A program made the translations under genes and the position numbers. Source: Psychrobacter sp. DM4 (GTDB taxonomy: Bacteria > Pseudomonadota > Gammaproteobacteria > Pseudomonadales > Moraxellaceae). Taken from it: 32,000 nt of DNA. Shown piece after piece: positions 9,556 through 24,875 of the stretch (positions are counted from its first letter, which is position 1; each line of letters begins with the position of its first letter). Under the pieces are notes generated by a model. That model did not search any database, was not told where the DNA came from, and was given only the letters and a program-made list of their open reading frames with translations. The DNA lies in NCBI RefSeq assembly GCF_051307035.1, contig NZ_CP195536.1, forward strand, positions 1,140,001 through 1,172,000. The letters are read 5' to 3'.

Positions 9556-10540
9556 ATGATCAAAAACAGGGCTAACGATCGCTTTGATGGTAGAATCTTT
9601 AACGGCTTGTAGCAACGATAAAGCAGTTAGCCCTACATCCGTAACGTCTACTAGCGATGTAAAGCCATGAAATACGATATATAGGGGAACCGCTTCAGTC
9701 TCTCAAGGCGCATCGACTATAAGTATACCCTCGCTATACGAATGCAATAATGGTAGAAATGCTCCCATTGTTCAGAGTCAAGGCACTGACGGCAAACTAT
9801 GGACACTACCCGCTGAGATGAACTTTACAAATAGCCGCTTTCCGTTTGCTTACGATCTAAATAACCCTTGTACAGGTGTACGCTACGCCTCAGCTACAGA
9901 GGCTCGCGATGCGCTAAACCCATCTGATATGATTGAGATTGATGCCGATGGTGAAGTCATCACGGCCGACATCTTTGCCGATGACTATTTTGAGATGTAC
10001 GTTAATGGCATATGTGTCGGTAAAGACAGTGTGCCTTTTACTCGATTTAATTCTAACGTGGTACAATTTAAGGCCAAAAAGCCCTTTACAGTGGCGACGA
10101 AACGGGTTGATTGGGAAGAGAATAGGGGTATTGGTTCAGAAAGCAATCGAGGGCAGTCTTATTATTCAGGTGATGGCGAGGTAGTTACGGTATTTATGAA
10201 TACCGATAATGAAATCGTTGCCAAAACTGACGATAGCTTGAAAGCGTAAACCTTTTACAGCGCGTCTATTCGGAATCTGAGCTGTGTCACCGAAAAAGAC
10301 GCGTTACGTCTGACAAAAAATTGCTCAACTGAAGGCAGTAATGATGGCACGCAAGATTATACATTGCACTGGCAGCTGCCTGACAATTGGTATGCGCAAG
10401 ACCTTAATGATAGCGCTTGGCCTAACGCTACCGTATTTACAAATGATGAAATTGGTGTCGATAATAAGTCCGCTTATACCGACTTTGTCGATAACCCAAT
10501 AACGACGCACGTTTTATATAGTCAATCAATGTCATATTAG
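9556..10540 (+). pseudogene. Disrupted lipoprotein gene (frameshift plus at least two in-frame stops)
   Basis: ATG 9556 is out of frame by 1 nt with a lipoprotein signal sequence (..KTGLTIALMVESLTAC/SNDK, Cys codon at 9608). Removing one A from the run 9562-9566 restores MIKTGLTIALMVESLTACS. The same frame then continues through TGA 9668-9670 and TAA 10247-10249 with protein-like sequence on both sides. It ends at TAG 10538. A further frame switch near 10498 gives ..NNDARFI*SINVILDNEVIVRHTV.. running to 10617. Confidence 0.65.
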
Positions 10541-10598
10541 ACAACGAGGTTATCGTACGCCACACTGTTGATTATTATTCATTCGTTTCATCAACATC

Positions 10599-10634
10599 AA
10601 AAAAAAACCAACTTTGATGAGTTGGTTTTTTTTA
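10599..10634. terminator. Bidirectional rho-independent terminator
   Basis: aaccaact (10606-10613) pairs with agttggtt (10620-10627) around the loop ttgatg. An A-run lies upstream and a T-run downstream. Confidence 0.75.
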
Positions 10635-10674
10635 TGCGTTATTTATAAATACTAAATCAAGCTCTAGCAGCAAA

Positions 10675-10712
10675 CGTTACTTTTCTTAAAGTTTCATAAA
10701 GCTACGCAACAG
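10675..10712 (+). promoter_or_regulatory. Copy 2 of the conserved 38-bp upstream motif
   Basis: cgttacttttcttaaagtttcataaagctacgcaacag is 32/38 identical to 9410-9447. TATACT sits 10 bp downstream. The motif is 58-115 bp upstream of the possible starts of the next ORF. Confidence 0.45.
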
Positions 10713-10769
10713 ATAAAACAAATATACTTTTCTTATGGGGGTGGGGCAAAAGATTCAGTATTCTTCCTT

Positions 10770-11195
10770 ATGAAATCTAATAGCTGGATTATCGCTGTTC
10801 ATAATAATGACTTAAATGGAATAACAATGAAAAGTTTAGCGTTGGGGTTTTTAGTATCGTTGATAGAAAATATCGCAGTCATTTTAATACTACCGACTCT
10901 AAAAAGTTTGGCTCTTGGTGTAATGTTAGCCGCGTCCACGATTTTTACAATAATCAATCCTGCAAATGCGGCTGCTAATAATATGACACATTACTCTGCA
11001 CCAGTAGCAGCCCATCAGGACATTGCCAAAGAATCTGAATCAACTACCAATAGTAAAGAGGGTAATTTAAAAAATAATGACCAACAGCAATATAACCGAT
11101 CAAAATATAATAGTGTTAAACAAAGGGTTGAGATGAATCGAACGCTCAAAACGGGTGAGGATCGCAGAATAGGATCTGGGAGTTATAGCTCTTAA
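10770..11195 (+). CDS. Hypothetical small secreted protein (start uncertain: 10770 or 10827)
   Basis: The ORF contains a signal-peptide-like stretch, KSLALGVMLAASTIFTIINPANA/AANN, followed by a hydrophilic N/Q/S-rich tail. The first 43 codons include a duplicated copy of the signal-peptide start. I recognise no homology. Confidence 0.4.
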   Translation: MKSNSWIIAVHNNDLNGITMKSLALGFLVSLIENIAVILILPTLKSLALGVMLAASTIFTIINPANAAANNMTHYSAPVAAHQDIAKESESTTNSKEGNLKNNDQQQYNRSKYNSVKQRVEMNRTLKTGEDRRIGSGSYSS

Positions 11196-11256
11196 TTTTA
11201 AAACCAAATGTTTAAGCTAGCATCAGGATATTAATTTTACAAAAGGGAATGTTGTC

Positions 11257-11583
11257 ATGAGAAATTATTTTAATTTGTTTAGCACTAAAGCGCGATTGCT
11301 CTGTTTGGGATCAGCACTATTCATAGCACCAGTAACCTCAAGTTTTGCCATTTTGCCGATACCATTAGCAATATTTGAACCTGAATCAATTTCGTTACTC
11401 TCAGCGAATGACAAAAAACTATCAACTAGCTATGATGATGTTAATTTTGAAGATAGCAACTTAATGACTCGCAATCAAAGCCAAGCTAAAAAGTATACTA
11501 CTGAATATTTAGTATCTAACATTGAGCGTATACCAGCCCTTTATCTTAGTGAACGTACCATTATTATGAAGTCTACATTGTAA
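11257..11583 (+). CDS. Hypothetical small secreted protein
   Basis: The N-terminal signal peptide is MRNYFNLFSTKARLLCLGSALFIAPVTSSFA. An AAGGGA-like ribosome-binding site lies 8 nt upstream. I recognise no homology. Confidence 0.4.
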   Translation: MRNYFNLFSTKARLLCLGSALFIAPVTSSFAILPIPLAIFEPESISLLSANDKKLSTSYDDVNFEDSNLMTRNQSQAKKYTTEYLVSNIERIPALYLSERTIIMKSTL

Positions 11584-12240
11584 GTGGTCTTACCAATCTT
11601 GTTTGTGCATATATGCTAAGCTGTCGTCAAAGCTCTTTAAATTTATTAAGACAGATCTGTTTGCTGCGATTACTAATCTGACTAATGGTAAACACGAGAA
11701 TGTAAAACTTGCGAAAACTAATTACGCTACACAAGACTCAATATTTGTTCTACCAATTATTCAGGGTAAAAACCCTGACATTCATAAAGCCACCTGACCA
11801 ATATTTTTTAGTGCTTTACTTTATATGTACTACGAATACTAGCTTAAAGCGTTTATAAACACATTCTTCTTATATTTTGGTTGATACCAGCATGTTTGTA
11901 AATGACTTTCATGAACCCACAATATCAAAAGTAATGACATCTAGTAACTCTCATATTATAGGTATAAATCAAACTGAAATAACCACTACATTGCATACCA
12001 TCTGAGTAGAAATGTAGCATCCAAAGTAGCTCTAAGTAAGCTGTTCTCGCTGCTTCCAGTTCTTATGACTCAAAGACATGCGCTTAAGTAAGTCGCGTCT
12101 TTATCTCCAATCAGACAGCTTGATTCTACTTAATTAGTATCTTAGGTTTGGGAGGGTTACCCTAGCTTTCAAGACAGATAATTAATTACTTAAATTTACT
12201 CTTTTGCTCAGTTTATATAGTTCACCATATACTAAGACAT

Positions 12241-12390
12241 TCCTAAAACTTCTAAAAATTCCATAAAAAAAGGCTTGCCGCATCGCTGCGAACAAGCCTG
12301 ATTTCTTTGTACACTATAAATATGGTGGGCCCAGTATCAACCACATAAATATTCCAAGTTATTGATTTAAATATTTTTATTTAAAAATAT
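12241..12390. repeat. Copy B of the ~145-bp imperfect direct repeat
   Basis: It aligns with 6155-6300. The hairpin is ggcttg (12272-12277) with caagcc (12293-12298), plus an inner stem cgca with tgcg. On the minus strand TTTTTTT follows the hairpin, so it can act as the terminator downstream of the seven-gene minus-strand operon. Confidence 0.8.
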
Positions 12391-12642
12391 TTTTTCTTAT
12401 ACCAACGGTTATACCAACAATTGAATCGAATTATAGATCGATTTTCCAGCCAATATTACAGTATGTTTGGTCTTAAAATTAATTGTTATTTATTGTTAGA
12501 TATAAGTAATATGCTAATTGAAGAATATAAATTATTCTAACGCTACCTTAACATCATTCAGATAATATGTGGGGAAGGAAAATGCTAAGAAGTCATGTAT
12601 ATATTCTTACCCCATAGTGGTAGGTAGTGAGTAAAATATTGT

Positions 12643-14490
12643 CTATTCTAGTGAGAATTTAATATTCCAACGACCAGCTTCCTTATATTCACCTTTAGCA
12701 TTCAATTTAAAATATCGGTTCTTATCAGCATCTGAGGTTAGCTGATAGGTTACACCACATTGCGAGTTTAAGCATTGCGCGATAAAGGTACGATTGGTTG
12801 CTCTTGGTTCAAATGTGGATAGTTGATGACATAAAGGGCAGTGCTTCAAAACTGCTACTTCTTGATTTTTTTCTAGCAGACTCGCTTTATCTGTATGACG
12901 CAAGTAGCTTTCAATTTCTTTTTTACTATTAATAGATAACTCATTTATTAATTGATAGCTACTGGCGTTCTTATAGATACTATTAGTCTCTGCTAGACTT
13001 TGTAGAGCACGACTGGAGATTTTATTAAATGGTAGGTCACTGGCATATCCTGTTAATATGTCAACGTATAGCCATTCTAGCAGTCGAGTAATAAGGCGCT
13101 CGGTAGCCATAAAATTAAGTGGATTAGCTAGTATCGCATTGTTTGTGACAGGCTTATTCTCTGATAGGTCAATCTTTGACTCTAAAAGATGAATAACGAT
13201 CAGATGGGGATTACTTTTTATATCATGATTTAAGGTATCATCAATTTGATTGGCGATGGAAATAATATTTAATAGGTTTTTCGAATATGTATGAGTCAAA
13301 CGCCAGTTATGTGTTTGTTGATCGACTTCAACAGTTACTTGCCAGTTAAGTTCATCGTTTGCTAGAAGTATACTACCAGTAGTTTTTTTAATAGTATTAA
13401 AATTCAACTCTTCGAGTGCCCTTAATAAAATTAACAAAGCATATTGATTGTACTCTTCTTGGAACTGGCGCTTTTTTTCCAACGCTTTAATTAAATCTTT
13501 CACTTCTTGAGACTGTTTATTGAGTTTTGTCCATAAAATACCCACATGTCTATAGTGTTGGTCATGCATCAAGATATTTGTCTTGTGCAACTGGTTTGAA
13601 ATATTCTTATGGGCTTGAGGGATTTTTAGGTAGAGTCCAAAACTTTGTAATCTAGTTATGTTATCTTGCAATGCTAAGTTTTTTTCACTAATTGTCATTA
13701 GCTCTTTGCGTTTTTCGGCGGATTTTTCATCACTGAGATTGCTTGCCCATAAACTACAAAGAAGGCTGGTTAGTTTGTAATAGCTTTCATGCGCTTTATC
13801 AAGTTGTAGGGCATCATCAATATTATTGATTTGTTCCTCTAGTTCTCTAAGTCGTTGTTGTAAAAATAGCATGACCCTATCGAGTAGTCTTGAAAAAACT
13901 TTATTTTCATATATAGAGTAGTTATCGTCACTAATTTTAGCTAAAAGTTTTCTAGGATACACGCCTGCTAAAGTACGCCTTTGCCAAGTCTCGGAATGCA
14001 CAGCTAAATAACGATGAGCTTTATTAGATATCTTCTTTGCTCGGCTAACATCAATTAACTCTTCATCGTAACGAATATCAAGTCTAGGCTGGTAGGCTAT
14101 TTGATGTAAATGACCTGTTTCCAATACGTCGAACAAAGATTGTTCAAAATCGTTCAATTTAGCAGTGTCCTCGAACACTTTCTCAGGCACAAGTGGGCTA
14201 GGTAGAGGAGTCAATTCATCCTCTGCTAGCCATAATGCCAATTGTAAGGCTATATGTTCAATTGAACGACTCATTGTACTTGTTATCGCTGGATCTAGGC
14301 ATAGTACAGAATCTGCGTCATCTATCACAAAGTGCCCTGTACTATCACAGAAAAGAATAGTATAAGCATCTACTTCAAAACGTCGATTGTAAGTAAATGG
14401 GCGAGTATTCACATATCTTTGTGGAATTACAGAAGTAATTATAGGTAATGTGGATAATGAGACGATATCGCCTGTAATTCTATCAAGCAT
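12643..14490 (-). CDS. McrC-like partner protein (DUF2357-like region, possible degenerate PD-(D/E)xK core, C-terminal zinc ribbon)
   Basis: The 615-aa ORF starts 3 nt after the stop of the McrB-like gene. DDNYSIYENKVFSRLLDRVMLFL resembles the conserved YEN(R/K)+hydrophobic helix of McrC/DUF2357-type proteins. Candidate nuclease residues are ..NQIDD..(about 20 aa)..LIVIHLLESK, a hydrophobic strand followed by E-x-K. The C-terminus has CPLC-x18-CLNSQC. Confidence 0.5.
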   Translation of the reverse strand: MLDRITGDIVSLSTLPIITSVIPQRYVNTRPFTYNRRFEVDAYTILFCDSTGHFVIDDADSVLCLDPAITSTMSRSIEHIALQLALWLAEDELTPLPSPLVPEKVFEDTAKLNDFEQSLFDVLETGHLHQIAYQPRLDIRYDEELIDVSRAKKISNKAHRYLAVHSETWQRRTLAGVYPRKLLAKISDDNYSIYENKVFSRLLDRVMLFLQQRLRELEEQINNIDDALQLDKAHESYYKLTSLLCSLWASNLSDEKSAEKRKELMTISEKNLALQDNITRLQSFGLYLKIPQAHKNISNQLHKTNILMHDQHYRHVGILWTKLNKQSQEVKDLIKALEKKRQFQEEYNQYALLILLRALEELNFNTIKKTTGSILLANDELNWQVTVEVDQQTHNWRLTHTYSKNLLNIISIANQIDDTLNHDIKSNPHLIVIHLLESKIDLSENKPVTNNAILANPLNFMATERLITRLLEWLYVDILTGYASDLPFNKISSRALQSLAETNSIYKNASSYQLINELSINSKKEIESYLRHTDKASLLEKNQEVAVLKHCPLCHQLSTFEPRATNRTFIAQCLNSQCGVTYQLTSDADKNRYFKLNAKGEYKEAGRWNIKFSLE

Positions 14491-14493
14491 ATA

Positions 14494-16938
14494 TTAGACT
14501 CCACTTAACCTTTCTATATCCTGCTCTAAAAGATAACTACTCTCTTCAGGGACATCCGATAAACCTAAGGTCTCCCATATCCGTAGTAAGCTATCGTTGA
14601 TATCCTCAATCTTATCAGAACGTGTATCATATCGACCACAGACTTTACCAATACGGAATACTTTAGTAGCTAACAAATGGTCAAGTGCTTCTGCCATCGT
14701 GCCACCGCAAGCCATATAGACAGGAATAAACTTACGAGCTTGGTTTTGCAAGCGATTACCCCAGCTAACTTTAATTTTAAGTAGGTTTTTTTGCAATTCG
14801 CTCTCTAATAACAACTCGAATATATCATCGACATCTGACTGATGTTTTGTAATAGCTTGTTCAAAACGTTCTATCAAACTGCTATAGGAGTATTGAGTAT
14901 TGTCCACCGTATTATCGAAAGTAAGTTTCTCACTTCTGTGTATTTCCATAACGTGGGCTCTATCATAGGTTTTGTCAGCAAACTCTTTGGTTGTTTCATC
15001 GTGGTTTGCAGTGCCTATAAACCATACATTTTTAGGTATCTCTAAGGTCCGACCATTTTTAAATAGCAAGGGTGCATCATGATGTGAGCTATCTAATAAG
15101 TTTATTTTTGCGATATCAGAAGTTTCTAATAGAGACAAAAAGTCAGCAAAATACTGTTCAGGTTGAGACAAATTCATTTCATCTAACAAAATTATTTGTA
15201 GAGTGTTCTGAAATCGCGGTTGTTGGGCACGGTATAAAGCTTGTAATGCTTCTTTGGCATAGAATTTTTTCTCAAACGCGTTATAGTGACCTAATAAATC
15301 TTCTCTATCACGCCAGCCTGCTTGTACTCGAATCACCTCGCAATAAAGTTCATTATCATTATCGGGTGGGTTATTAATCGCTTTTGCAAAGGCTCGAGCT
15401 AAGCTAGTCTTACCTGTACCAGAGATACCTTGCAAAATATGTAGCTTGCTCATTGACAGTCCAGCAATAAATAGCCGTATGTCTTTATTAGTATAATAAA
15501 GACCTTGATTGGCAATGCGGGCACGCATAAGGTTTGAGAATTCCTCTAAGCTTGGCACGGCTTGCAAGCCACTTGCTAGACTACTGAATTTTTCATCCAT
15601 GTCACTAAGTAGCGAAAATGGTAGTGCGCCTTTTTGAGCATCTTCTAAGTCATCAATCTGACTTTTTAATTGTTCAATACTAATATTCAGCACTCTTTTA
15701 TGTTCTTCTAATATTCGTTTTTCTTGTAGCAAGTTTTGACGTTCAAGCGCGCTTAATCGAGTGTTATTAAGTTCACTCTGAGCCTGGGCATAGCTTGCTT
15801 TTAAGTCTTCTAATTGACTTAGTGTGTCATCTAATCTTTCTTCTAATCTTTGATTATCTTCTATTAATCCATCTTCATAACGTTCACTTAGTTCATGCTT
15901 AAGCTCTCTATTCTTCTGTCTAAGTCGGTTTAGTTCTTCTTGAACGTTATTGATACCATCGTTGGTTAGTTGGCGCTTTAAATCCTCAAATTGAGCATTT
16001 TCTTGTGCCATTCTATCTATCTCGTCAATTGCCTTTCTTTTACTCTCTATAAGCGCTTTGTTTTCAGCGGCTAATTGAGTTAGTTTTGCTTCAAACTGCC
16101 GATGAATATGGCTTTTCAGTACATCGTTTTGAATGTCTAACTGTGCTTTCGTTTCTTCTAATTCAGTTTGCGCCAGTTTAAGTGCGCTCTCCTGTTCGAC
16201 TAAATCTAACTTTTGCTTTTGTAAGGCTTTGTTGTCATTTTCTTTTCTAGCGTGTAATTCTTTTAGTAAATCCTGCTCTAAATTATTGGCTCTAAGGGTC
16301 AACTCTTCTTCTATCAATGATATTTGTTGTTCACGCTCTCTAAGCTGGTTATCTTTATCATAAATATTTTTTAATCGTTGTTCTATTTGAGCTAGAGATG
16401 TTTTCTGTAGTTCACTTAGCTCTTTATTTTTGACTTGTAGCGCTTCTTGTTTTTGACTTGCAAAACCTAATTCAGCATTAATTTGTTGCTCTTCTAAAAC
16501 AGATAACTGCTTTCGAAGCTCAAGCTGTTCTGTTTTTAAACTTTTCTTTTCTTCTAGTAACTGCTGACGTGCGTTGTCAACCTCTGTTTGCCGTTGAGCT
16601 ATTGATGCATTGTCTTCGTCAAGTTTGGTCTTTTGACGGTATAGATCGCTCTTTTGTTGTTCTAGAGCTTCAAGCTCTTCATTTAGAAGAGTGCTTTTAC
16701 TTTGGTATTCAGCCGAGTCTTGCTTGTATTGCTGTTCAGCTTCAGTATAAGACTCTAGGTCAGCTAGCATCTTATCTCTAAGCTCATTATCCTTTTCCAA
16801 TAACATTTCTTGTTCTTTATTGACAATCGAACCTGTAACACTTTTTAGAAGCTCTGATATTTTTGTAACCTCTTTATTTGCACTAGGGCTAGGAATTTCA
16901 GACTTTACATGGTTATTTTTTCTGTTCTTTCTTGCCAT
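14494..16938 (-). CDS. Coiled-coil protein fused to a McrB-like AAA+ (AAA_5-type) NTPase
   Basis: Residues ~25-445 are an uninterrupted E/K/Q/L-rich heptad-like sequence (nt ~15604-16866). Walker A is GISGTGKT (nt 15406-15429) and Walker B is QIILLDEMNLSQPE. NVWFIGTANHDETT aligns with the McrB segment GLMNTADRS. The gene is followed by a McrC-like gene. Confidence 0.7.
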   Translation of the reverse strand: MARKNRKNNHVKSEIPSPSANKEVTKISELLKSVTGSIVNKEQEMLLEKDNELRDKMLADLESYTEAEQQYKQDSAEYQSKSTLLNEELEALEQQKSDLYRQKTKLDEDNASIAQRQTEVDNARQQLLEEKKSLKTEQLELRKQLSVLEEQQINAELGFASQKQEALQVKNKELSELQKTSLAQIEQRLKNIYDKDNQLREREQQISLIEEELTLRANNLEQDLLKELHARKENDNKALQKQKLDLVEQESALKLAQTELEETKAQLDIQNDVLKSHIHRQFEAKLTQLAAENKALIESKRKAIDEIDRMAQENAQFEDLKRQLTNDGINNVQEELNRLRQKNRELKHELSERYEDGLIEDNQRLEERLDDTLSQLEDLKASYAQAQSELNNTRLSALERQNLLQEKRILEEHKRVLNISIEQLKSQIDDLEDAQKGALPFSLLSDMDEKFSSLASGLQAVPSLEEFSNLMRARIANQGLYYTNKDIRLFIAGLSMSKLHILQGISGTGKTSLARAFAKAINNPPDNDNELYCEVIRVQAGWRDREDLLGHYNAFEKKFYAKEALQALYRAQQPRFQNTLQIILLDEMNLSQPEQYFADFLSLLETSDIAKINLLDSSHHDAPLLFKNGRTLEIPKNVWFIGTANHDETTKEFADKTYDRAHVMEIHRSEKLTFDNTVDNTQYSYSSLIERFEQAITKHQSDVDDIFELLLESELQKNLLKIKVSWGNRLQNQARKFIPVYMACGGTMAEALDHLLATKVFRIGKVCGRYDTRSDKIEDINDSLLRIWETLGLSDVPEESSYLLEQDIERLSGV

Positions 16939-16942
16939 AGTG

Positions 16943-18487
16943 CTATGCCTTATCAGTTAATTGGTTTAAGTAATTTTGAACCCATTGAGTTGTAAATTTT
17001 GCCAGATCGAGCGCTGTACTTTGGGTAATATCAGTCTTTGGCCCGTCATGCGAGCTTTCATTACGGTAATCACATATTTGACTTAAAAATAGCAAGTCAG
17101 CATCTAAATCATCGGTAAGTAGCAATGGGTGATTAGAGTAATCAGCAATTGCTAGAATATTTGCCGTTATAATAGGCTTTAAAGAGCTATAGATAGTGGG
17201 GTATTTACCCGTTGAAAAACCTATAGCTGACTGTACCGCTCTAACATTACAAGTAGAGAAAGGTTCTAGACTCTCATCTAGAGCTCTGTTATTTGCTCGT
17301 AAAATTAGAGCTTGCAATAAGAATTTTTTATCTGAGGAGTAGGGCAGTATCTTATTATGTTGATGTGGGTAAGTGGTCAAAACATGTTTAAAGCAAGCTT
17401 CTAATGACTTTTGAGATTGCAATAATAAGTCATCGATATCTGCGCTATAGTTATGTTCTTCGAGATATTTTTGTCTGCGCAATAGTTTAGCGAGATGCAT
17501 ATCGAGATTATCAATCTCATTAACATTTGGATATGACGATAATATTTCAAAACGCATTTCTTCTTGTAAATGCGCCTCAAACTCTTCAATGCTTTGTTTG
17601 TCAGACTGATCAAGCCCCATAAATCGTTTAACTTTACTTGCAAAGGGTTTGTTACCCTGTGCTATGCTGTCATGTAAGTGGATAATCCAGTCATCAGATT
17701 GAGTAATATGTAATGGGTCTTGAAGCTGAGAGAAATGCTTTGTATCTATACTGTGCTGTAGATGAGTAAGGATAAAGTATGGTGTGGGTTGCTTGCTGGC
17801 AATATCAAAGTTACCAAGATTGATATTAGAAGTGGCAGTTTTTTTTGAGTCATTACTACGGTTACGTAATCTACCACTGGCTACGGCTCTTTTATATAGT
17901 TCAAGTGCTTGCCTAAACTCATTCTTAGTTGGTTTGGTAAAATGATATTTTTGAGAGGTATTTACGATAAAAGGTTCAATGTTTTGTCCTGTGTTTCGAT
18001 CCGCTTTGATAGTAACGCTATGGTCGTTCTTAACAACATCTAAGTAATTTAGCTTATGTGCGACAACACGAGGCCAAAGATGACCGTCAATAGCATCTTG
18101 AATAATATAACCCAGTTGTGTCTTATAAGAGGGCGTAGCTGTTTTATCTAGTGCCTGCCAGCCCAATGGTGTAAGATTTATAATGCCCTTGTCACTATTC
18201 ACGTAACCACGATTAAAAAGTTCATTTATGATAATATCAACAAGTTCAGCATCAATATTTAGCCATTGACTCATTTGCATGCGATCACGCTTGTTATACT
18301 TTAACAGCTCAAGAATGGTACGTTGAAAAAAGTTGAAGTTATCTTCTTTGTCCGCGATGGGGGTTATTACTTCCCACAGCCAGACTGGAAGAAATGCCAT
18401 GTTATGTCTATCATTGGTATTTAGATCCTTCATATCGCTATTGCTATAGAAAGATAGGTAATTATCAGAAAATTTGTCCATAATCAC
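16943..18487 (-). CDS. wHTH-like N-terminal domain protein with a C-terminal HEPN-type putative RNase domain
   Basis: The R-x4-H HEPN motif is present as ICDYRNESSHDG (R475-H480; nt 17048-17065) within a predicted helical C-terminal region. The N-terminal FQRTILELLKYNKRDRMQMSQWLNIDAELVDIIINELFNRGYV...LTPLG looks like a winged helix. The gene overlaps the helicase gene by 23 nt. Confidence 0.55.
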   Translation of the reverse strand: MIMDKFSDNYLSFYSNSDMKDLNTNDRHNMAFLPVWLWEVITPIADKEDNFNFFQRTILELLKYNKRDRMQMSQWLNIDAELVDIIINELFNRGYVNSDKGIINLTPLGWQALDKTATPSYKTQLGYIIQDAIDGHLWPRVVAHKLNYLDVVKNDHSVTIKADRNTGQNIEPFIVNTSQKYHFTKPTKNEFRQALELYKRAVASGRLRNRSNDSKKTATSNINLGNFDIASKQPTPYFILTHLQHSIDTKHFSQLQDPLHITQSDDWIIHLHDSIAQGNKPFASKVKRFMGLDQSDKQSIEEFEAHLQEEMRFEILSSYPNVNEIDNLDMHLAKLLRRQKYLEEHNYSADIDDLLLQSQKSLEACFKHVLTTYPHQHNKILPYSSDKKFLLQALILRANNRALDESLEPFSTCNVRAVQSAIGFSTGKYPTIYSSLKPIITANILAIADYSNHPLLLTDDLDADLLFLSQICDYRNESSHDGPKTDITQSTALDLAKFTTQWVQNYLNQLTDKA

Positions 18488-21400
18488 CTCGACATAGTTG
18501 GCTCATAGCTGTTAAAGATGGAATGTGTTGTTCTGTTAATGGATGCTCAGCTAACATTAAGTCACCTGCGATAATAATCAAACTTCTTTGTCGACTAAAA
18601 GCCACGTTAAGGCGATTATCTACACGCAAAAAGCCATAGAGCGAATTGAGTTGAGGTTCAGTCATCTCATAGCCCCTATTTTTTGTTACGGTTTTTAAGT
18701 CATTAGGTAGCGTGCGTACAAGTGACAATAACACCACATCAAACTCTTTACCTTGAAATGAATCTACTGTACCCACTCGCAAACGCTCATCACCTATATG
18801 ACTGCCTTTAGTCAGTTGTTGATAGTCAGGATGTACTTCGTTGTTTAGAATCAAATCAAGCTTTTGCATTTCTTGCATTAGAGCGCTTCTTTGATCTCCA
18901 TAAAAGGTGATCACACCGACACTTATTTCTGGATTTTCATCTAGAATGCGTTTTGTCTCTTGGGAAATCCAAATAGCTTCATTCATATTTCTTCTCTTAT
19001 TACCTTTTTGAGTACCTTCAATATGTTGCCAGTGACATACCATGCCTTCGTATCCAGATATGTCATGAATAAAGTCAGTAGTGGGTCTACCTGACTTAAG
19101 CTTAGATAGTCCGTGATTTTCGTAAAAATTTTTGCTAATAAAATCTCCAAGCACTGGATGCATACGGAATTGCTCATCAAGCATTACTACTCGTTTTGGT
19201 TGCCCGTCCTCTTTCTCTAGCTGGGTTAAGTTCTTTACCATTCTTTGAAATAAGCTGTCGCGTAGCATTTCGCTTTGCAAGCTGTCCCAGTCATCTTCTT
19301 CTACCATTTGGGTTTCCACGGCATCATCAAGCATATGCGGCAGTTGTCTATGATCTCCTACCAATACAATCCGTCTATTTGCCATAGCCATTGGTATCAT
19401 AAGATCTAATGGTGTGGCACGTGCAGCCTCATCCACAATGACATTTTCAAAGTTAATGTTGGAATCTTGGCTAAGTTGAGTTAAGCGTCTCATGTCTTGG
19501 CTGGCTGATTTTTGACAAGTGGCCGCATAGACAGAGGTATAGTGGGCGATTGTTTCGTCTACTTTGTTATCATCAGTAGCGACTGTTTCACGAAATTGCT
19601 TTAAAGCCAAAAGATACCCTAATGTATGCGACTCGCTAATTTTTTTAGTCATTTGAGTATCAAGTTCATCTAACCTATCGCAATCACTAGCAGTTAGTAT
19701 GCTTTGTATATTCAATGGTCTAAAGTCAGGTAAGCTCTTATCTAATAACGTATCTTTCAGTTGCTGTAATGGTATTAGATCAGCGTCTGAAGGAGGGGAG
19801 ATTTGCATATGACCAAAGTTATCTAATATTTGAAGTTTATCTTCTGATATGAGCTGAGTGTCTGGATTATCATTTTGTAATAATGTTAAGTAGGCGCTTA
19901 ACTCCGCGCAACGTTGGATTCCATCATCGGCAAAACTTGAAGCAGAGGTTCGAAGTGCCCAAATATTAGGTATACAGTTTTGTAATAATGAAGGAGAAAA
20001 GTAAGACTGCTCTAACGTAAAGCCTTCCCACCATAAGCGCCAATCATGAGACGGTACAATATGATAATACGTATTAAAGTCTGTCAAGATTCGGTTGATC
20101 TCTATTTTACTGCGCTCTTTTATATCTCTAGCACCCAAACGCAAGTTTAGGGTTGCATGCTTTAATGAATCGAGTAACGTTAATGCATAACAATCGTCTA
20201 TTTCTTGAGTTAAAACATCCTTTGTAGAGTTACGCCATTTTTGGATGGGCAGATTAACGTCTTTTTGTCCTATGTTGTCTTGATACTTGCTACCAACACG
20301 TAGACCAGGTAAGCCTAATACCTGTGTTCGGCTGTTGGCATTATCAACTGCATCATGTTGATAGCTCGTTAACAGGATGGAACGTTGAACAGGCGTGTTA
20401 TCCTTTGCTTTTTCTTCTACGATTCGCTGTTGAATAGCGGCGATGACTTGTGTCTTTCCTGTACCGGGCGGTCCGATAATAACAGTAATATCAGCACTGT
20501 TTAAAGCCGTTTCAATGGCTTGTTGCTGTCTACGAGTAGTCGGGCCCGCTTTGAATAGAGCTTTTACCTGTGGACTATGCCATCTTAATTTGCGAGACTG
20601 TTTGATAGTGGGTACAGCAATACCTTGCATTAAATAGTCTAAACTTGGCATTGGATTATGATGATGACTAATTTGCTCTAAGGCTAGAACCTGACGTTGG
20701 CGTTGAACCTGAGTTGAATAAATTGATAAAAATAGAAAGCTATTACCGTGTTTATCGGTAGGTTTTTTTTTCTCACGAAATCCTGTGTATTTAACAGTCA
20801 AGTATCCTGCATCACTGTCAATATCAACAATTTCACATTTCCAAGGTTCTTCTAGAGCTTTCTTGTGGTCAGTTTTACTGCTATTCTCAGGGCTGCTGTT
20901 ACTTAGCCAATCTGGCAATGTTGATGCTATTTGGAATACCTGTTCTTCTTTCTCATTATTCTGAATACTCACCTGTAATGCTTCGGCAAATTTCTTTAAT
21001 TGCTCTTTGTTTACACTAAGACGAGACAAATTTTGTTGCTCTAGAATTTTGTCATCTAGTATCTTTAAATAGTTAAATTTTTGCGCATTTATGGCAACTT
21101 TTTGCCATTGTAGATCACTATATTTTTGCCATACTTTGATATAGTTACCATGGGTGTTTTTACTATCTTTGAGCGCAGTTTTATAATGAGGCTGATTGAG
21201 CTTTTGCGCCTGAGAGTTATCAAAGAAAACAATATTACCCTGTATCGCGCTTAATTCAATATTATCACTATGTGGATTAAATGGTCTGATTCTTTGTATA
21301 TTCCATTGGTTATTTGATACTTTAATATCAAGGATATGTGCTTTACCTACTAGGCTTAAAGTATCATCAGTGGAATTTTGATTTAGGAAGGTTATAAATA

Positions 21401-21869
21401 GTGCTGTAGTATAAGAATGAGAAGTATCTATAAATGATACATTCTCAGTGATTAGAAAGTTCTCTTCTAACCATACTATAGCTAAATTGACGTCATTATC
21501 TCCAATATGTCTTTGGTTTTTAAGTTGCTCAACGATGTATTCGCTGACACCAAGATTAAAGTCTTCCCCGTCTACTCGAACTATTTCATCTTTAAGGGGT
21601 GTTGCCATTAGCCAAAGTGCATCGGCCTCTTGTTTGACTAATGACCACAATAGATTGTGCTGTTGAATATATAGTCTGGCATGAACAGCTGTCTTATCAG
21701 CAGACTGTATATTCTCTAGGGTAGTTACAGTGCTATCTTGAGCTAAGTATAGAGATTCGCCTTCTATCCATACGTTTACTGGTTTTTCCTCTATCAATCT
21801 GACACTATCATCAATGAGGGTTACTTCAAACAACTCACTGGAGTTGATTCTAAGTTCAAATAAGTTCAT
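18465..21869 (-). CDS. Superfamily 1B helicase, Upf1/DNA2-like (AAA_11/AAA_12 type), with a ~450-aa uncharacterised N-terminal region
   Basis: - **Motif I:** IIGPPGTGKTQV (nt 20451-20474 encode GPPGTGKT).
- **Motif II:** VIVDEAARATP.
- **Motif III:** VLVGDHRQLPH.
- **Motif IV:** LDEQFRMHPVLGDFISKNFY.
- **Motif V:** VGTVDSFQGKEFDVVLLSLVR.
- **Motif VI:** NRLNVAFSRQRSLIIIAGD. Confidence 0.85.
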   Translation of the reverse strand: MNLFELRINSSELFEVTLIDDSVRLIEEKPVNVWIEGESLYLAQDSTVTTLENIQSADKTAVHARLYIQQHNLLWSLVKQEADALWLMATPLKDEIVRVDGEDFNLGVSEYIVEQLKNQRHIGDNDVNLAIVWLEENFLITENVSFIDTSHSYTTALFITFLNQNSTDDTLSLVGKAHILDIKVSNNQWNIQRIRPFNPHSDNIELSAIQGNIVFFDNSQAQKLNQPHYKTALKDSKNTHGNYIKVWQKYSDLQWQKVAINAQKFNYLKILDDKILEQQNLSRLSVNKEQLKKFAEALQVSIQNNEKEEQVFQIASTLPDWLSNSSPENSSKTDHKKALEEPWKCEIVDIDSDAGYLTVKYTGFREKKKPTDKHGNSFLFLSIYSTQVQRQRQVLALEQISHHHNPMPSLDYLMQGIAVPTIKQSRKLRWHSPQVKALFKAGPTTRRQQQAIETALNSADITVIIGPPGTGKTQVIAAIQQRIVEEKAKDNTPVQRSILLTSYQHDAVDNANSRTQVLGLPGLRVGSKYQDNIGQKDVNLPIQKWRNSTKDVLTQEIDDCYALTLLDSLKHATLNLRLGARDIKERSKIEINRILTDFNTYYHIVPSHDWRLWWEGFTLEQSYFSPSLLQNCIPNIWALRTSASSFADDGIQRCAELSAYLTLLQNDNPDTQLISEDKLQILDNFGHMQISPPSDADLIPLQQLKDTLLDKSLPDFRPLNIQSILTASDCDRLDELDTQMTKKISESHTLGYLLALKQFRETVATDDNKVDETIAHYTSVYAATCQKSASQDMRRLTQLSQDSNINFENVIVDEAARATPLDLMIPMAMANRRIVLVGDHRQLPHMLDDAVETQMVEEDDWDSLQSEMLRDSLFQRMVKNLTQLEKEDGQPKRVVMLDEQFRMHPVLGDFISKNFYENHGLSKLKSGRPTTDFIHDISGYEGMVCHWQHIEGTQKGNKRRNMNEAIWISQETKRILDENPEISVGVITFYGDQRSALMQEMQKLDLILNNEVHPDYQQLTKGSHIGDERLRVGTVDSFQGKEFDVVLLSLVRTLPNDLKTVTKNRGYEMTEPQLNSLYGFLRVDNRLNVAFSRQRSLIIIAGDLMLAEHPLTEQHIPSLTAMSQLCRGDYGQIF

Positions 21870-21875
21870 TTATAT

Positions 21876-23321
21876 CTACCAGATAAAACGCCAAAAAAAG
21901 TATGAAGTATTGTCAGTACTGCTAGAGGAAGATGATATTTTTAGTGTATAAAAATCATTTCGTTTAATTGCTATTTTTAGTAAACGAGTCTTTTTAATAT
22001 CTACTGTTTTATTATCTTTTAGCCTGATAATTGTAATAGTTTCATTATTTTTTGGTGTTATATGAAGGCCGTCATCAGTGAGCTTAAGTTCACACCAAGG
22101 TGATAGTTTTGTTAAGTCAAAGCGGCTGTAAGGTTCGGTATACAGATATTTGTCATAATTCAAGCTAATGATTGAAGTATTATGACAGTCTATATCTTGA
22201 CTACTAGTATCGTCTATTTGTTCAGTCGTATAAAAGAACTGTGATATGGATAAGGAGTATGGTTCGTTAGACTCACCACAAAAAAAGCATTGCCTATCAT
22301 TATTAGCGACAAAACTACTCTGAAAATGCTCACCTTGACAGGGCTGATGTTGACAGTACATTAGTATCTGAAGCGTTTTATTTAGTTCGTGGTGCCATTC
22401 ATTCATACTAGGCCTAAGGTATAGGCCACTACGTAGTCTACTATCAGCAAAACAACGTTTAAACAGTTCAAATAGGTCATCATTAATTAATTCATTCAGT
22501 GGCATACCTGCGCCATTGTGCTCATTACTATCATCTTCTGGATCAAATATCCAAGCGTAAGCTCCTTGTTCAACTTGCTCATCGACCACATCGGAATCTT
22601 CATCATCATAAGCATCTTCCACACCGATACCTTCATTATATGGATGATTATGAGCAAGTAGTTGCTGTGCTATGACAGCAAAAGCCCAACAGTCTGTCCA
22701 AGAACTGTTTTCTGACTCATTTCTTAGGACTTCTGGAGCGCCATAGCCAGGCGTGTAGTAAGAAGCAGCGTGCGAACTTTCCTGCGTTTTGATATTGTCA
22801 GCATCTATCAGCCACACCTCATTATGATCATAAGATGTAGACACATAGATATTGTCTGGTGATAAGTCGCCATAACACAAGCCTTTGCCATGAAGCTGGG
22901 CTAACGTTTGGGCTAGTTGTATTAATAATTTTATCCGTCTGGCTAATCCACCAGTGTCACGATAAGCGTCTGCCATGCTAACGTTGATAGAACTATCTTG
23001 AATACGCTTTATTTGCTGAGTAAGCGATTCGAGGTTATCCATTAACTCCATGACATAGCCGACACGATTTTTTAATTTAAGTACGGCTATAGGTAGAGCG
23101 ATATTTAAATCTCGTATGGGCCTACGTACCACCCATTGTATTTTTGCAAATTCTTGATGTCTTTTGACGTCACTATCTATAGGGTTGGTTATTTTTACAA
23201 TCAGATTATGATGATTGGTAGTGAATACTTGACCTTGCCCGCCTTGCCCAAGTTTGCTTGTTAATTCGTAGACGGTGCCATGAGTATCTTTAACTTCCTT
23301 ATTCTTTTGTGCTACTGCCAT
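21876..23321 (-). CDS. Ser/Thr protein kinase (Hanks-type) with a C-terminal zinc ribbon and an extra C-terminal domain (TerY-P kinase component)
   Basis: - **Gly-loop:** LGQGGQGQVF (nt 23226-23249).
- **Lysine strand:** LIVKI.
- **Catalytic loop:** YGDLSPDN (nt 22851-22868 encode DLSPDN).
- **DFG-equivalent:** LIDADN.
- **APE-like:** GYGAPE.
- **Zinc ribbon:** CQHQPC-x16-CFFC.
- **C-terminal region:** ~140 aa, beta-rich and of unknown function. Confidence 0.85.
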   Translation of the reverse strand: MAVAQKNKEVKDTHGTVYELTSKLGQGGQGQVFTTNHHNLIVKITNPIDSDVKRHQEFAKIQWVVRRPIRDLNIALPIAVLKLKNRVGYVMELMDNLESLTQQIKRIQDSSINVSMADAYRDTGGLARRIKLLIQLAQTLAQLHGKGLCYGDLSPDNIYVSTSYDHNEVWLIDADNIKTQESSHAASYYTPGYGAPEVLRNESENSSWTDCWAFAVIAQQLLAHNHPYNEGIGVEDAYDDEDSDVVDEQVEQGAYAWIFDPEDDSNEHNGAGMPLNELINDDLFELFKRCFADSRLRSGLYLRPSMNEWHHELNKTLQILMYCQHQPCQGEHFQSSFVANNDRQCFFCGESNEPYSLSISQFFYTTEQIDDTSSQDIDCHNTSIISLNYDKYLYTEPYSRFDLTKLSPWCELKLTDDGLHITPKNNETITIIRLKDNKTVDIKKTRLLKIAIKRNDFYTLKISSSSSSTDNTSYFFWRFIW

Positions 23322-24027
23322 GTTGTTTTTTCCAAATAATTACCCCAATACTTTTATCATCACTATGATGAGGGGTTTGCCAATTATTGAGCTCATTAAT
23401 TAGGTATTTCTTACCTTGACGAGGGCTAATAGCTATGAATTTACCAGACAGAAAATCTAAAAATTGTTGAGGCTTATCTATATCATCACTAATTCCATCT
23501 GTCATTAATGTAATTGTGGCACCAAAATCTAATTGAATTTCTCGGTAAGTCCAATCTTGCCAACGTATTGAATATCCTAAAGCAGTTGTTTCATTACCAA
23601 ACATATTGTCAGATTTTTCATGATTAACGCCGAAAGTATCTGTCATATAGTAAATAGCACCGTCACCTAGCTGAAAAAGCCTTACTTTCCCTGAGGAGTC
23701 TCCCCAAGCAAACAGGCATGTTGTGGCGGCATCTTTAGGAGAGGTACGAGGAAGATAATCTTTCAAGTACATTAGCCATTGCTGGTATATTCTTTTTACT
23801 ACACTTTTTTCAGGCTCATTAAAATTGGTCTCACGTAAGGTAGTACACACTGCTTTACACGCAAGATATGAGCCAAGGGAGGCATAAGGACGAGAACCCA
23901 TACCATCACAAACGACTACTAACCAATGAGCACGCCAAACACGCTTCAAAATAGCATCTTGATTACGTTTAGATTCACGATGGTTTTTTGGCCCTCGAAC
24001 AGTAGCTATAGATATATTTACATTCAC
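23299..24027 (-). CDS. PP2C-family Ser/Thr protein phosphatase (TerY-P phosphatase component)
   Basis: PP2C metal-binding blocks are present: RNQDA, VVVCDGMGS, LMTDGISD and DDKSIGVI. A GTG start overlaps the vWA stop by 1 nt (TAGTG). The 3' end overlaps the kinase start by 23 nt. Confidence 0.8.
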   Translation of the reverse strand: MNVNISIATVRGPKNHRESKRNQDAILKRVWRAHWLVVVCDGMGSRPYASLGSYLACKAVCTTLRETNFNEPEKSVVKRIYQQWLMYLKDYLPRTSPKDAATTCLFAWGDSSGKVRLFQLGDGAIYYMTDTFGVNHEKSDNMFGNETTALGYSIRWQDWTYREIQLDFGATITLMTDGISDDIDKPQQFLDFLSGKFIAISPRQGKKYLINELNNWQTPHHSDDKSIGVIIWKKQHGSSTKE

Positions 24028-24710
24028 TAGTCGAAATCACTTAGGTCAAGCTCATCGTCTGTGGATATATCATTAAAATCTATCTTATTAATTTGATTTG
24101 GCTTTGTGCTACGAGATCGTAAAGTGACGCTCATGCTAACTGCTCTAAAAAATCTAGAAATGTCTTTAGCATCATGTGCTTTGAACACCGGCGTTTCAAG
24201 GTCATTAATAAATTGTTTTAACATATGTATATTAGCATCTGCTCCAATACCCATTGCCATTCTTACGGCTTTGCTGGCACGTTCAGATTCTTGTAATTCG
24301 ACAAAGGGTTGTTCCCAATTATCTGTAGGGTTGCCATCAGACACCAACACTAGAGTAGGCTTGTATGCTCGACTTGGTATGAGCTCTTTGTCTTCTAACA
24401 ATTCTTTTGCCATTGTCATTGCACTACCCATGGGAGTACCGCCACTTGCTACTAAGTCTTGCATACCTGATATTTCATCAGCTGAAGTTAGAGGTAATAT
24501 CATCGAAGCATTCTCCCCCCCAAATGCGATGATAGCGACTTGGATAACTGCATTGAGATGGCTTTCTTTGCCAAACGATATCAGCATGTCTTTAAGTGCT
24601 AAATTCAGAGCTTCCATTTTTCCATCTATACTCATACTACCGCTAGTATCTGCCAAAATAATAACTGGTAGAGGACGTGGCTTAGCAGCTGCGAATTCGC
24701 GCATTGCCAT
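24027..24710 (-). CDS. TerY-like von Willebrand factor A (vWA) domain protein
   Basis: The MIDAS motif DTSGS is at nt 24636-24650. Downstream are GGTPMG and LVSDGNPTD. The size (227 aa) and layout are typical of TerY-type vWA proteins. This is the first gene of the operon. Confidence 0.85.
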   Translation of the reverse strand: MAMREFAAAKPRPLPVIILADTSGSMSIDGKMEALNLALKDMLISFGKESHLNAVIQVAIIAFGGENASMILPLTSADEISGMQDLVASGGTPMGSAMTMAKELLEDKELIPSRAYKPTLVLVSDGNPTDNWEQPFVELQESERASKAVRMAMGIGADANIHMLKQFINDLETPVFKAHDAKDISRFFRAVSMSVTLRSRSTKPNQINKIDFNDISTDDELDLSDFD

Positions 24711-24875
24711 AATTATTTCCTTACATTAGACGAGATTTATTGCACTATCCTACTGTCTAATCTTACAGAGGTAAAGCAGTTTATTAAGACTTTCTCGAGC
24801 AAATATTTTTAAATGTTATTGTCAACTTGCACATAAACTAGAATGGTTTTAGCTATGAAAAGTAACGAGCCAGCA

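Follow-up and report, generated by a model that had tools for sequence, protein, structure and literature searches.

What does an McrB-like motor do when a long coil stands where its DNA-reading domain should be? This question is raised by an 814-residue protein encoded in a 32,000-nucleotide window of the chromosome of Psychrobacter sp. DM4 (assembly GCF_051307035.1, contig NZ_CP195536.1, positions 1,140,001 to 1,172,000). In this genome the protein (100% identical) is annotated 'AAA family ATPase'. A preliminary description of the window, made from the sequence alone, had called it an McrB-like AAA+ motor whose target-recognition domain is replaced by a continuous coiled coil. The open reading frame (ORF), which starts with ATG, and the motifs GISGTGKT, ILLDEMN and GTANHDETT are found where that description had placed them (Table 1). 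Our analysis identifies the protein, with high confidence, as CnuB of a Type II CoCoNuT (coiled-coil nuclease tandem) system on the Psychrobacter chromosome. CoCoNuTs are a predicted RNA-targeting bacterial defence family, described computationally by Bell, Sahakyan, Makarova, Wolf and Koonin (eLife 2024; preprint July 2023; PMC11090510). Taken as a whole, the reading as a Type II CoCoNuT CnuB is likely to be the best explanation of the locus.

The AAA+ core and the N-terminal arm of CnuB

The AAA+ core occupies the C-terminal part of the protein. Its best Pfam match is to the generic AAA_5 family, and AAA is also matched. When CnuB was searched against the PDB as a single sequence, E. coli McrB was the sole AAA+ match, at marginal E values of 0.025-0.049. 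With a profile of the whole protein, the results were dominated by matches to coiled-coil composition (designed coils, M protein, apolipoproteins, SMC, myosin), and for this reason a second profile was built from the AAA+ region only of 11 diverse homologues (alignment A3). It matched E. coli McrB at 4.5e-10 to 8.8e-10 and Thermococcus gammatolerans McrB at 6.7e-7. After McrB it returned only P-loop noise at E>=0.008, and no MoxR or RavA entry at E<=1. Aligned with E. coli K-12 McrB in hhalign, A3 gave a probability of 97.7% and an E value of 2.5e-12; the aligned region runs from upstream of Walker A through the D-R that follows the signature motif. Matches at ~1e-20 were also obtained with relatives in which the N-terminal domain of McrB (PF12102) is present; the source of one of these relatives calls it 'restriction protein B'. 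Judged by these profiles, the core is, as the preliminary description had proposed, of the McrB family and not of the MoxR or dynein type. The C-terminus after the lid is helical and has no match to a helix-turn-helix (HTH) family.

The signature motif of the core is shorter than that of E. coli McrB. The CnuB segment NHDE aligns to MNTADRS and is one residue shorter. Its residues N645, D647 and E648 do not vary among the 18 homologues of alignment A1, which was also the input for AlphaFold2 modelling. The pattern G-T-x-N-x-D-(E/D/A)-(S/T)-T is present in every relative where the regular expression for the signature matched, and the N-x-D form extends to relatives from firmicute loci and to relatives with PF12102. 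Bell et al. described a deletion variant, 'NxD, usually followed by E or D', that defines a major branch of McrB proteins (PMC11090510). The preliminary description had found it unclear which nucleoside triphosphate (NTP) a core reading NHDE would use. NHDE proves to be a genuine NxD(E/D) variant of the McrB NxxD signature. Bell et al. state that no NxD-type enzyme has been characterised (PMC11090510), and the question of which NTP such a core uses had already been recognised.

The region N-terminal to the core has a strongly biased composition. Residues 25-445 (nt 15604-16866) contain 16.4% L, 14.7% E, 11.4% Q and 9.5% K, with 1 Pro, 5 Gly and neither Trp nor Cys. The Shannon entropy is 3.3-3.5 bits per 40-residue window, so the region is biased but is not a simple low-complexity sequence or repeat. 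In the AlphaFold2 model based on A1 it forms helices at residues 32-155, 164-320, 331-351 and 358-435, with a pLDDT (the predicted score of the local distance difference test) of ~75-80. In the model, no globular domain precedes the AAA+ fold, which starts near residue 484. The domain libraries gave no match N-terminal of residue ~480, including any DNA- or modified-base-recognition domain.

Heptad periodicity was analyzed at the hydrophobic positions conserved in the family. In helix 32-155 the spectral peak lies at exactly 3.50 residues (z=8.1, equalled by 0 of 300 shuffles). The peak of helix 164-320 lies at 3.6, and 1 of 300 shuffles reached it. The predominant spacings are 7, 3 and 4. For helices 331-351 and 358-435 the periodicity is not significant individually. 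A crude single-sequence heptad scan was weakly positive, with 15% of windows above the shuffled 95th percentile. A global single-sequence Fourier test at 3.5 residues was negative, and we infer that register shifts probably cancel the signal. For homologs of CnuA and CnuB in general, Bell et al. reported that Marcoil and Multicoil2 scores were maximal (PMC11090510). Judged by the conserved spacing and the predicted helices, the most fitting description of the region is a coiled coil, not disorder. The replacement of the DNA-reading domain by a long helical coil without a globular domain is thus upheld. The coil is not unbroken, as had been claimed, but has three short interruptions.

These interruptions, at residues 155-164, 320-331 and 351-358, are modeled with low confidence and are conserved in the family. 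The first carries the motif (N/D)-A-E-x-G-F, which reads NAELGF at residues 154-159 of CnuB. In A1, conservation is 90% or higher at A155, G158 and F159, and pLDDT falls below 50 at residues 155-166. A motif of the type A-(E/R/D/K)-x-G-F is found in ~35 of 41 CnuB homologues from many phyla. In the relatives P0056, P0057, P0059, P0060 and P0077 a second copy lies ~58 residues further on; the corresponding copy in Psychrobacter CnuB (~210-222) is degenerate. The second break contains a conserved G, often followed by P, in the context 'RxFGxR..P'. Walker A lies at a distance from the N-terminus that is typical of each clade, 438-555 residues in CnuH-linked loci and ~210-240 in firmicute loci.

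The operon and its assignment to Type II CoCoNuTs

Seven genes on one strand abut or overlap and form a translationally coupled operon, in which cnuB comes sixth (Table 1). The PP2C gene overlaps the VWA stop by 1 nt, the kinase gene overlaps the PP2C gene by 23 nt, and cnuE overlaps cnuH by 23 nt. The last gene, cnuC, starts 3 nt after the cnuB stop. When the operon was scanned for promoters and terminators, matches were no more frequent than in shuffled sequence and the coding strand held no internal terminator, which is consistent with one transcription unit and otherwise uninformative.

Table 1. Features of the CnuB protein and of the operon, with positions in the window. A1 and A3 are the homologue alignments described in the text.
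Feature	Position	Strand	Basis
TerY-like VWA protein, 227 aa, first of TerY-P triad	24027..24710	-	Pfam VWA_2 1.3e-11, VWA 2.3e-9; PADLOC TerY 1.6e-5; position kept in related loci
PP2C-type phosphatase, 242 aa, second of TerY-P triad	23299..24027	-	Pfam PP2C_2 2.8e-35
Ser/Thr kinase with C-terminal zinc ribbon, 481 aa, third of TerY-P triad	21876..23321	-	Pfam Pkinase 2.1e-16; CQHQPC at 323, CFFC at 345
CnuH, UPF1/DNA2-like SF1 helicase, 1134 aa	18465..21869	-	Pfam AAA_11 1.2e-29, AAA_12 9.2e-33; PADLOC MkoA 7.2e-86; IGHMBP2-family 1.3e-30
CnuE, winged-HTH protein with C-terminal HEPN RxxxxH, 514 aa	16943..18487	-	weak winged-HTH matches at 58-118
CnuB, coiled-coil arm and McrB-family AAA+ NTPase, 814 aa	14494..16938	-	
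CnuB coiled-coil region, residues 32-435	15634..16845	-	AlphaFold2 secondary structure and pLDDT; heptad periodicity of conserved hydrophobic positions
CnuB break motif Q-I-N-A-E-L-G-F-A, residues 153-159, between the first two long helices	16462..16482	-	
CnuB AAA+ core and lid, McrB-family, residues 484-814	14497..15489	-	Pfam AAA_5 3.6e-7; profile and hhalign to McrB
CnuB Walker A GISGTGKT, residues 504-511	15406..15429	-	invariant in A1 and A3
CnuB Walker B ILLDEMN, residues 583-589	15172..15192	-	L585, D586, E587, M588, N589 invariant in A1
CnuB McrB signature, shortened NxD form, GTANHDETT, residues 642-650	14989..15015	-	N645, D647, E648 invariant in A1
CnuC, McrC-like partner, 615 aa	12643..14490	-	DUF2357-like block ~120-230; beta-rich domain 365-455; C-terminal zinc ribbon

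CnuH contains GPPGTGKT (Walker A) at residue 466 and DEAA (Walker B) at 813, with an insertion of ~340 residues between them, and has an N-terminal extension of ~445 residues. Published Type II CnuH proteins carry N-terminal SmpB-like (SPB) and RelE-like (RTL) domains (PMC11090510). Of 10 CnuE orthologues from related loci, 9 keep the motif R475-NESS-H480, and a further conserved RxxxxH motif was not seen. CnuE is thus predicted to consist of a winged HTH and one HEPN domain.

CnuC is the McrC-like partner that the preliminary description had noted downstream of cnuB, and the two genes are adjacent in all intact related loci. The McrC N-terminal domain DUF2357 is matched in Pfam by 9 of 20 members of the CnuC family, three of them above the curated cutoff. 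These matches map to residues ~117-228 of CnuC, the most conserved block of the family. The zinc ribbon is formed by CPLC at 551 and CLNSQC at 573, and Cys551, Cys554, Cys573 and Cys578 are invariant or nearly so. No D, E or K is invariant in the beta-rich domain in the family alignment, which makes a PD-(D/E)xK site unlikely. Pfam gave no Hsp70 or HEAT match. The AlphaFold2 monomer has an overall pLDDT of 84.3. Residues 142-187 (nt 13930-14067, minus strand) are among the most conserved segments, with R150, L162, A163, S166, W169 and P179 invariant; this near-invariant segment is nevertheless modeled at pLDDT below 50. Such behavior would fit an interface that becomes ordered only on binding the CnuB ring.

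The locus has the architecture published for Type II CoCoNuTs. These combine a CnuB with a long N-terminal coiled coil, an McrB-like core and the NxD(E) signature with a downstream reduced CnuC that has a zinc ribbon and an inactivated nuclease and is not fused to Hsp70 or HEAT. Upstream they have a CnuE with an elongated winged HTH and one HEPN RxxxxH and, as CnuH, a UPF1-like helicase in which a large helical insertion follows Walker A. A TerY-P triad with a kinase-zinc-ribbon protein is frequent in them, although not a core component. The overlapping or abutting frames and the gammaproteobacterial host are also shared, Type II systems being abundant in Gammaproteobacteria, and no architectural difference was found in the Psychrobacter locus. 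The window contains no CARF/RtcR, Type I restriction-modification (RM) or BREX gene; the neighbours are a DEDDh exonuclease, an HNH protein and a DrmD-like SNF2 helicase. The novelty implied by the preliminary description is therefore not sustained, because the architecture it reported is the one that defines CnuB of the published family (PMC11090510). The checks it proposed have largely been done already for family representatives, and the preprint supplement lists an AlphaFold2 model of a CnuB hexamer with one CnuC monomer.

Other known systems share parts of the locus. E. coli K-12 McrBC (PDB 6hz4, 6ut6) has AAA+ homology from Walker A to the signature and D-R, and its partner gene is directly downstream. 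Unlike CnuB, E. coli McrB has a methylcytosine-reading domain at the N-terminus in place of the coiled coil and an NxxD rather than an NxD signature. CnuC differs from E. coli McrC in apparently lacking the PD-(D/E)xK motif, in having a zinc ribbon, and in showing no detectable sequence similarity to it. Type III-A CoCoNuTs share the CnuB coil and NxD signature, CnuH, CnuE and the TerY-P triad. This type was excluded, since its published CnuE has two HEPN domains and its CnuC is fused to Hsp70-like and HEAT domains without a zinc ribbon, whereas here a single RxxxxH and a 615-residue CnuC with a zinc ribbon are found. In Mokosh systems, which combine the helicase MkoA with the PLD nuclease MkoB or have the fused MkoC, MkoA is the PADLOC match of CnuH (Table 1), MkoB is weakly matched by the CnuE N-terminus (3.6e-6), and type I also couples a kinase to a helicase. 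Here, in contrast, no PLD nuclease was found, the kinase is a separate gene and an McrBC-like pair is present. Membership in Mokosh was rejected for want of a PLD domain, and the likeness reflects a shared helicase-effector module of the CnuH/CnuE type. The PADLOC model PDC-M26A matches CnuB residues 286-613 at 5.8e-39; PDC-M26 is a candidate model without a description and carries no functional information.

Alternative readings and a proposed mechanism

Several results weigh against the assignment to an McrBC-derived CoCoNuT. The window's own CnuC has no significant Pfam DUF2357 match, its family profile matched none of the solved structures, hhalign against E. coli McrC gave a probability of 0.1, and Foldseek with the CnuC model found nothing at E<=0.001. 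CnuC is tied to McrC by the Pfam DUF2357 matches on family members only. The literature searched contained no experimental work on any CoCoNuT, and the functional steps are all inference. In Foldseek, the whole CnuB model retrieves RavA at the top, with dynein, ChlI and McrB together with it at ~1e-5. Along with the generic AAA_5 match in Pfam, this ranking would favour a chaperone-like AAA_5 ATPase of the MoxR/RavA/dynein type, whose function would be unrelated to McrBC. ATPases of the MoxR/RavA type usually have a VWA partner, with which they act as a chaperone pair. Because Foldseek places RavA, dynein and ChlI beside McrB, the fold alone does not discriminate between them. The profile matches among solved structures are to McrB only, the McrB-specific signature is present in its NxD form, and a DUF2357-family gene is invariably adjacent. 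A MoxR or dynein grouping with no tie to the downstream gene, which the preliminary description had named as the outcome that would overturn its view, is scarcely credible. It had likewise allowed for a low-complexity, disordered N-terminal region. The high E/K/Q content, the 15% of windows in the crude heptad scan, and the helix 358-435, which on its own has no significant 3.5 periodicity, would suit disorder or an E/K-rich single alpha-helix with no coiled coil. This is very improbable given the leucine content of 16.4%, the 7, 3, 4 spacing and the 3.50-residue period of conserved hydrophobic positions, the pLDDT of the modeled helices, and the maximal Marcoil and Multicoil2 scores published for CnuA and CnuB homologs.

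Two further readings concern function. CnuB could belong to a conventional DNA-targeting Type IV restriction system, in which it would translocate DNA, CnuC would cut, and the coil would only dimerise hexamers. The homology of the core to McrB, the adjacent McrC-like gene and the defence-island setting with SNF2 and HNH neighbours all agree with this. We consider it improbable, however, as no DNA-binding or modified-base-reading domain was detected in CnuB, residues 365-455 of CnuC lack invariant acidic residues or lysines, the HEPN motif of CnuE marks the only nuclease-type domain with an intact motif, and the linked helicase is UPF1-like. Alternatively, the long coiled coils, the weak profile matches to SMC1, SMC3 and myosin rods, and the ParA annotation of two distant homologues (P0105 and P0108, see below) might suggest a structural protein of the SMC/Rad50/MukB or partition type. 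The SMC and myosin matches are explained by coil composition. The NTPase of CnuB is a contiguous C-terminal AAA+ domain, whereas SMC and Rad50 have an ABC-type head divided by an antiparallel coiled coil with a hinge or zinc hook; a search of CnuB revealed no hinge domain, and the gene is embedded in a defence-type operon. Such a role can hardly be entertained, and SMC- or ParA-type partition was rejected on the grounds of the wrong ATPase class. Nothing in the analysis supports the idea, raised in the preliminary description, that the coil measures distances like those of SMC and Rad50.

For a Type II CoCoNuT CnuB, we propose the following mechanism. CnuB would form a hexameric ring, as suggested by the McrBC structures and by Bell et al. 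CnuC would insert its highly conserved DUF2357-like segment (~127-205, of low confidence in the monomer) into the ring, and the insertion would stimulate NTP hydrolysis, probably of GTP. Since CnuC apparently lacks a nuclease site and CnuB has no domain for reading DNA, the ring would serve as a motor or switch and would not cut DNA. The CnuH helicase, which itself bears a coiled coil, and its partner CnuE, a HEPN RNase, would be recruited or positioned by the six coiled-coil arms. Viral or host RNA would then be cleaved, possibly at ribosomes, under the control of the TerY-P kinase/phosphatase switch, and the result would be restriction or abortive infection. The chain as a whole, which leans on analogy with McrBC, is tentative, and we rate it as possible rather than probable. 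Bell et al. hypothesised that the coiled coils of CnuB, CnuC, CnuH and CnuE interact (PMC11090510). That the coil may tether the helicase and HEPN partners, as the preliminary description suggested, is a plausible idea that these authors had already proposed.

The breaks in the coil may be modestly new. A text search of the CoCoNuT article (PMC11090510) returned no description of them, including the A-E-x-G-F motif. Because the breaks are conserved across phyla and the distance to Walker A is typical of each clade, the coil may be a jointed arm of constrained length and not a generic oligomerisation rod, although we regard this as doubtful. The joints could be elbows, or docking sites by which the six arms of the ring capture or position CnuH-CnuE or a ribosome or RNA substrate. 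If the arm were indeed jointed, an McrB-type DNA translocase could have been turned into an NTP-gated scaffold for RNA surveillance.

Distribution, genomic surroundings and significance

Relatives of the locus are widespread. In tblastn searches with all seven proteins, the gene order from TerY to CnuC was found in ~27 loci from at least six phyla. These include Gammaproteobacteria (L002, L006, L008), Betaproteobacteria (L007), Geomonas (L005), Cyanobacteria (L010), Verrucomicrobia (L016), Bacteroidota (L024, L026, L032, L033) and many actinomycetes, as well as L004, L012 and L075. In firmicute loci the resemblance is limited to the core, and CnuC is present in some and absent from others. Full-length CnuB homologues of 771-858 residues occur in Psychrobacter and Acinetobacter, and homologues are also found in Moraxella. 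A scan with one genome per species gave at least 592 CnuB relatives. The AAA+ half alone retrieved 8269 representative clusters (50% identity) at E<=0.001, 6161 at E<=1e-10 and 677 at E<=1e-30. In nearly all of the top 150, the core follows an N-terminal extension of 400-520 residues.

Two distant coiled-coil NxD McrB homologues of ~846 residues, P0105 and P0108 from Halomonas and Vreelandella, appear in public records under the name 'chromosome partitioning protein ParA', a label that their coiled coil and P-loop probably attracted in error. A 611-residue protein of Psychrobacter immobilis (P0055), annotated hypothetical, is 98% identical to CnuB and stops before the NxD signature. It may represent a frameshifted or pseudogenised cnuB in one strain.

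Further defence-type genes lie upstream of the operon. A DEDDh-type 3'-5' exonuclease (25865-26581, minus strand; PADLOC DEDDh 9e-19) is followed by an HNH protein (26887-27948, plus strand) and a 965-residue SNF2 helicase (28387-31284, plus strand), which matches PADLOC DrmD at 6.3e-96 and BrxH at ~1e-61. These genes may belong to a second defence module, DISARM-, BREX- or Dpd-like, that runs past the end of the window. Between them and the operon start lies a 180-residue ORF (25059-25601, plus strand) with a match to a DDE transposase (PF13612, 5.4e-24) that begins at profile position 11 of 155. The ORF resembles the truncated remnant of an insertion sequence, which fits a mobile or recombined island. 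The G+C content is 0.33-0.40 across ~11000-28000, which covers the operon and its neighbours, compared to 0.42-0.49 in the housekeeping genes that flank this stretch (BCCT transporter, FMO, Na/H exchanger, two-component system), a drop that suggests horizontally acquired DNA. Three ORFs of 143, 141 and 108 residues between the two-component system and the operon end (9818-11583, plus strand) have no Pfam or PADLOC match; the 108-residue product begins with a hydrophobic segment that resembles a signal peptide. Two ORFs antisense to operon genes were taken as shadow ORFs, one within cnuB (15072-15377, plus strand, 101 aa) and one in the VWA gene (24106-24729, plus strand, 207 aa).

The observation of a coil-bearing McrB-type motor is correct and had already been published as a computational prediction, and it adds no new concept to the 2023-24 description. 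Its remaining interest lies in a family for which no experimental characterisation was found and in the locus as a possible model system. The Psychrobacter locus is compact and complete, its seven genes packed into ~12 kb with tight or overlapping frames and without CARF or RM accessories, which would make it a convenient experimental model. CoCoNuTs are a widespread predicted immune class, as the 677 clusters of the CnuB core at the strictest threshold indicate. In these systems, a motor of the McrB type seems to have passed from the restriction of DNA into a response that targets RNA and is based on a helicase and HEPN proteins.

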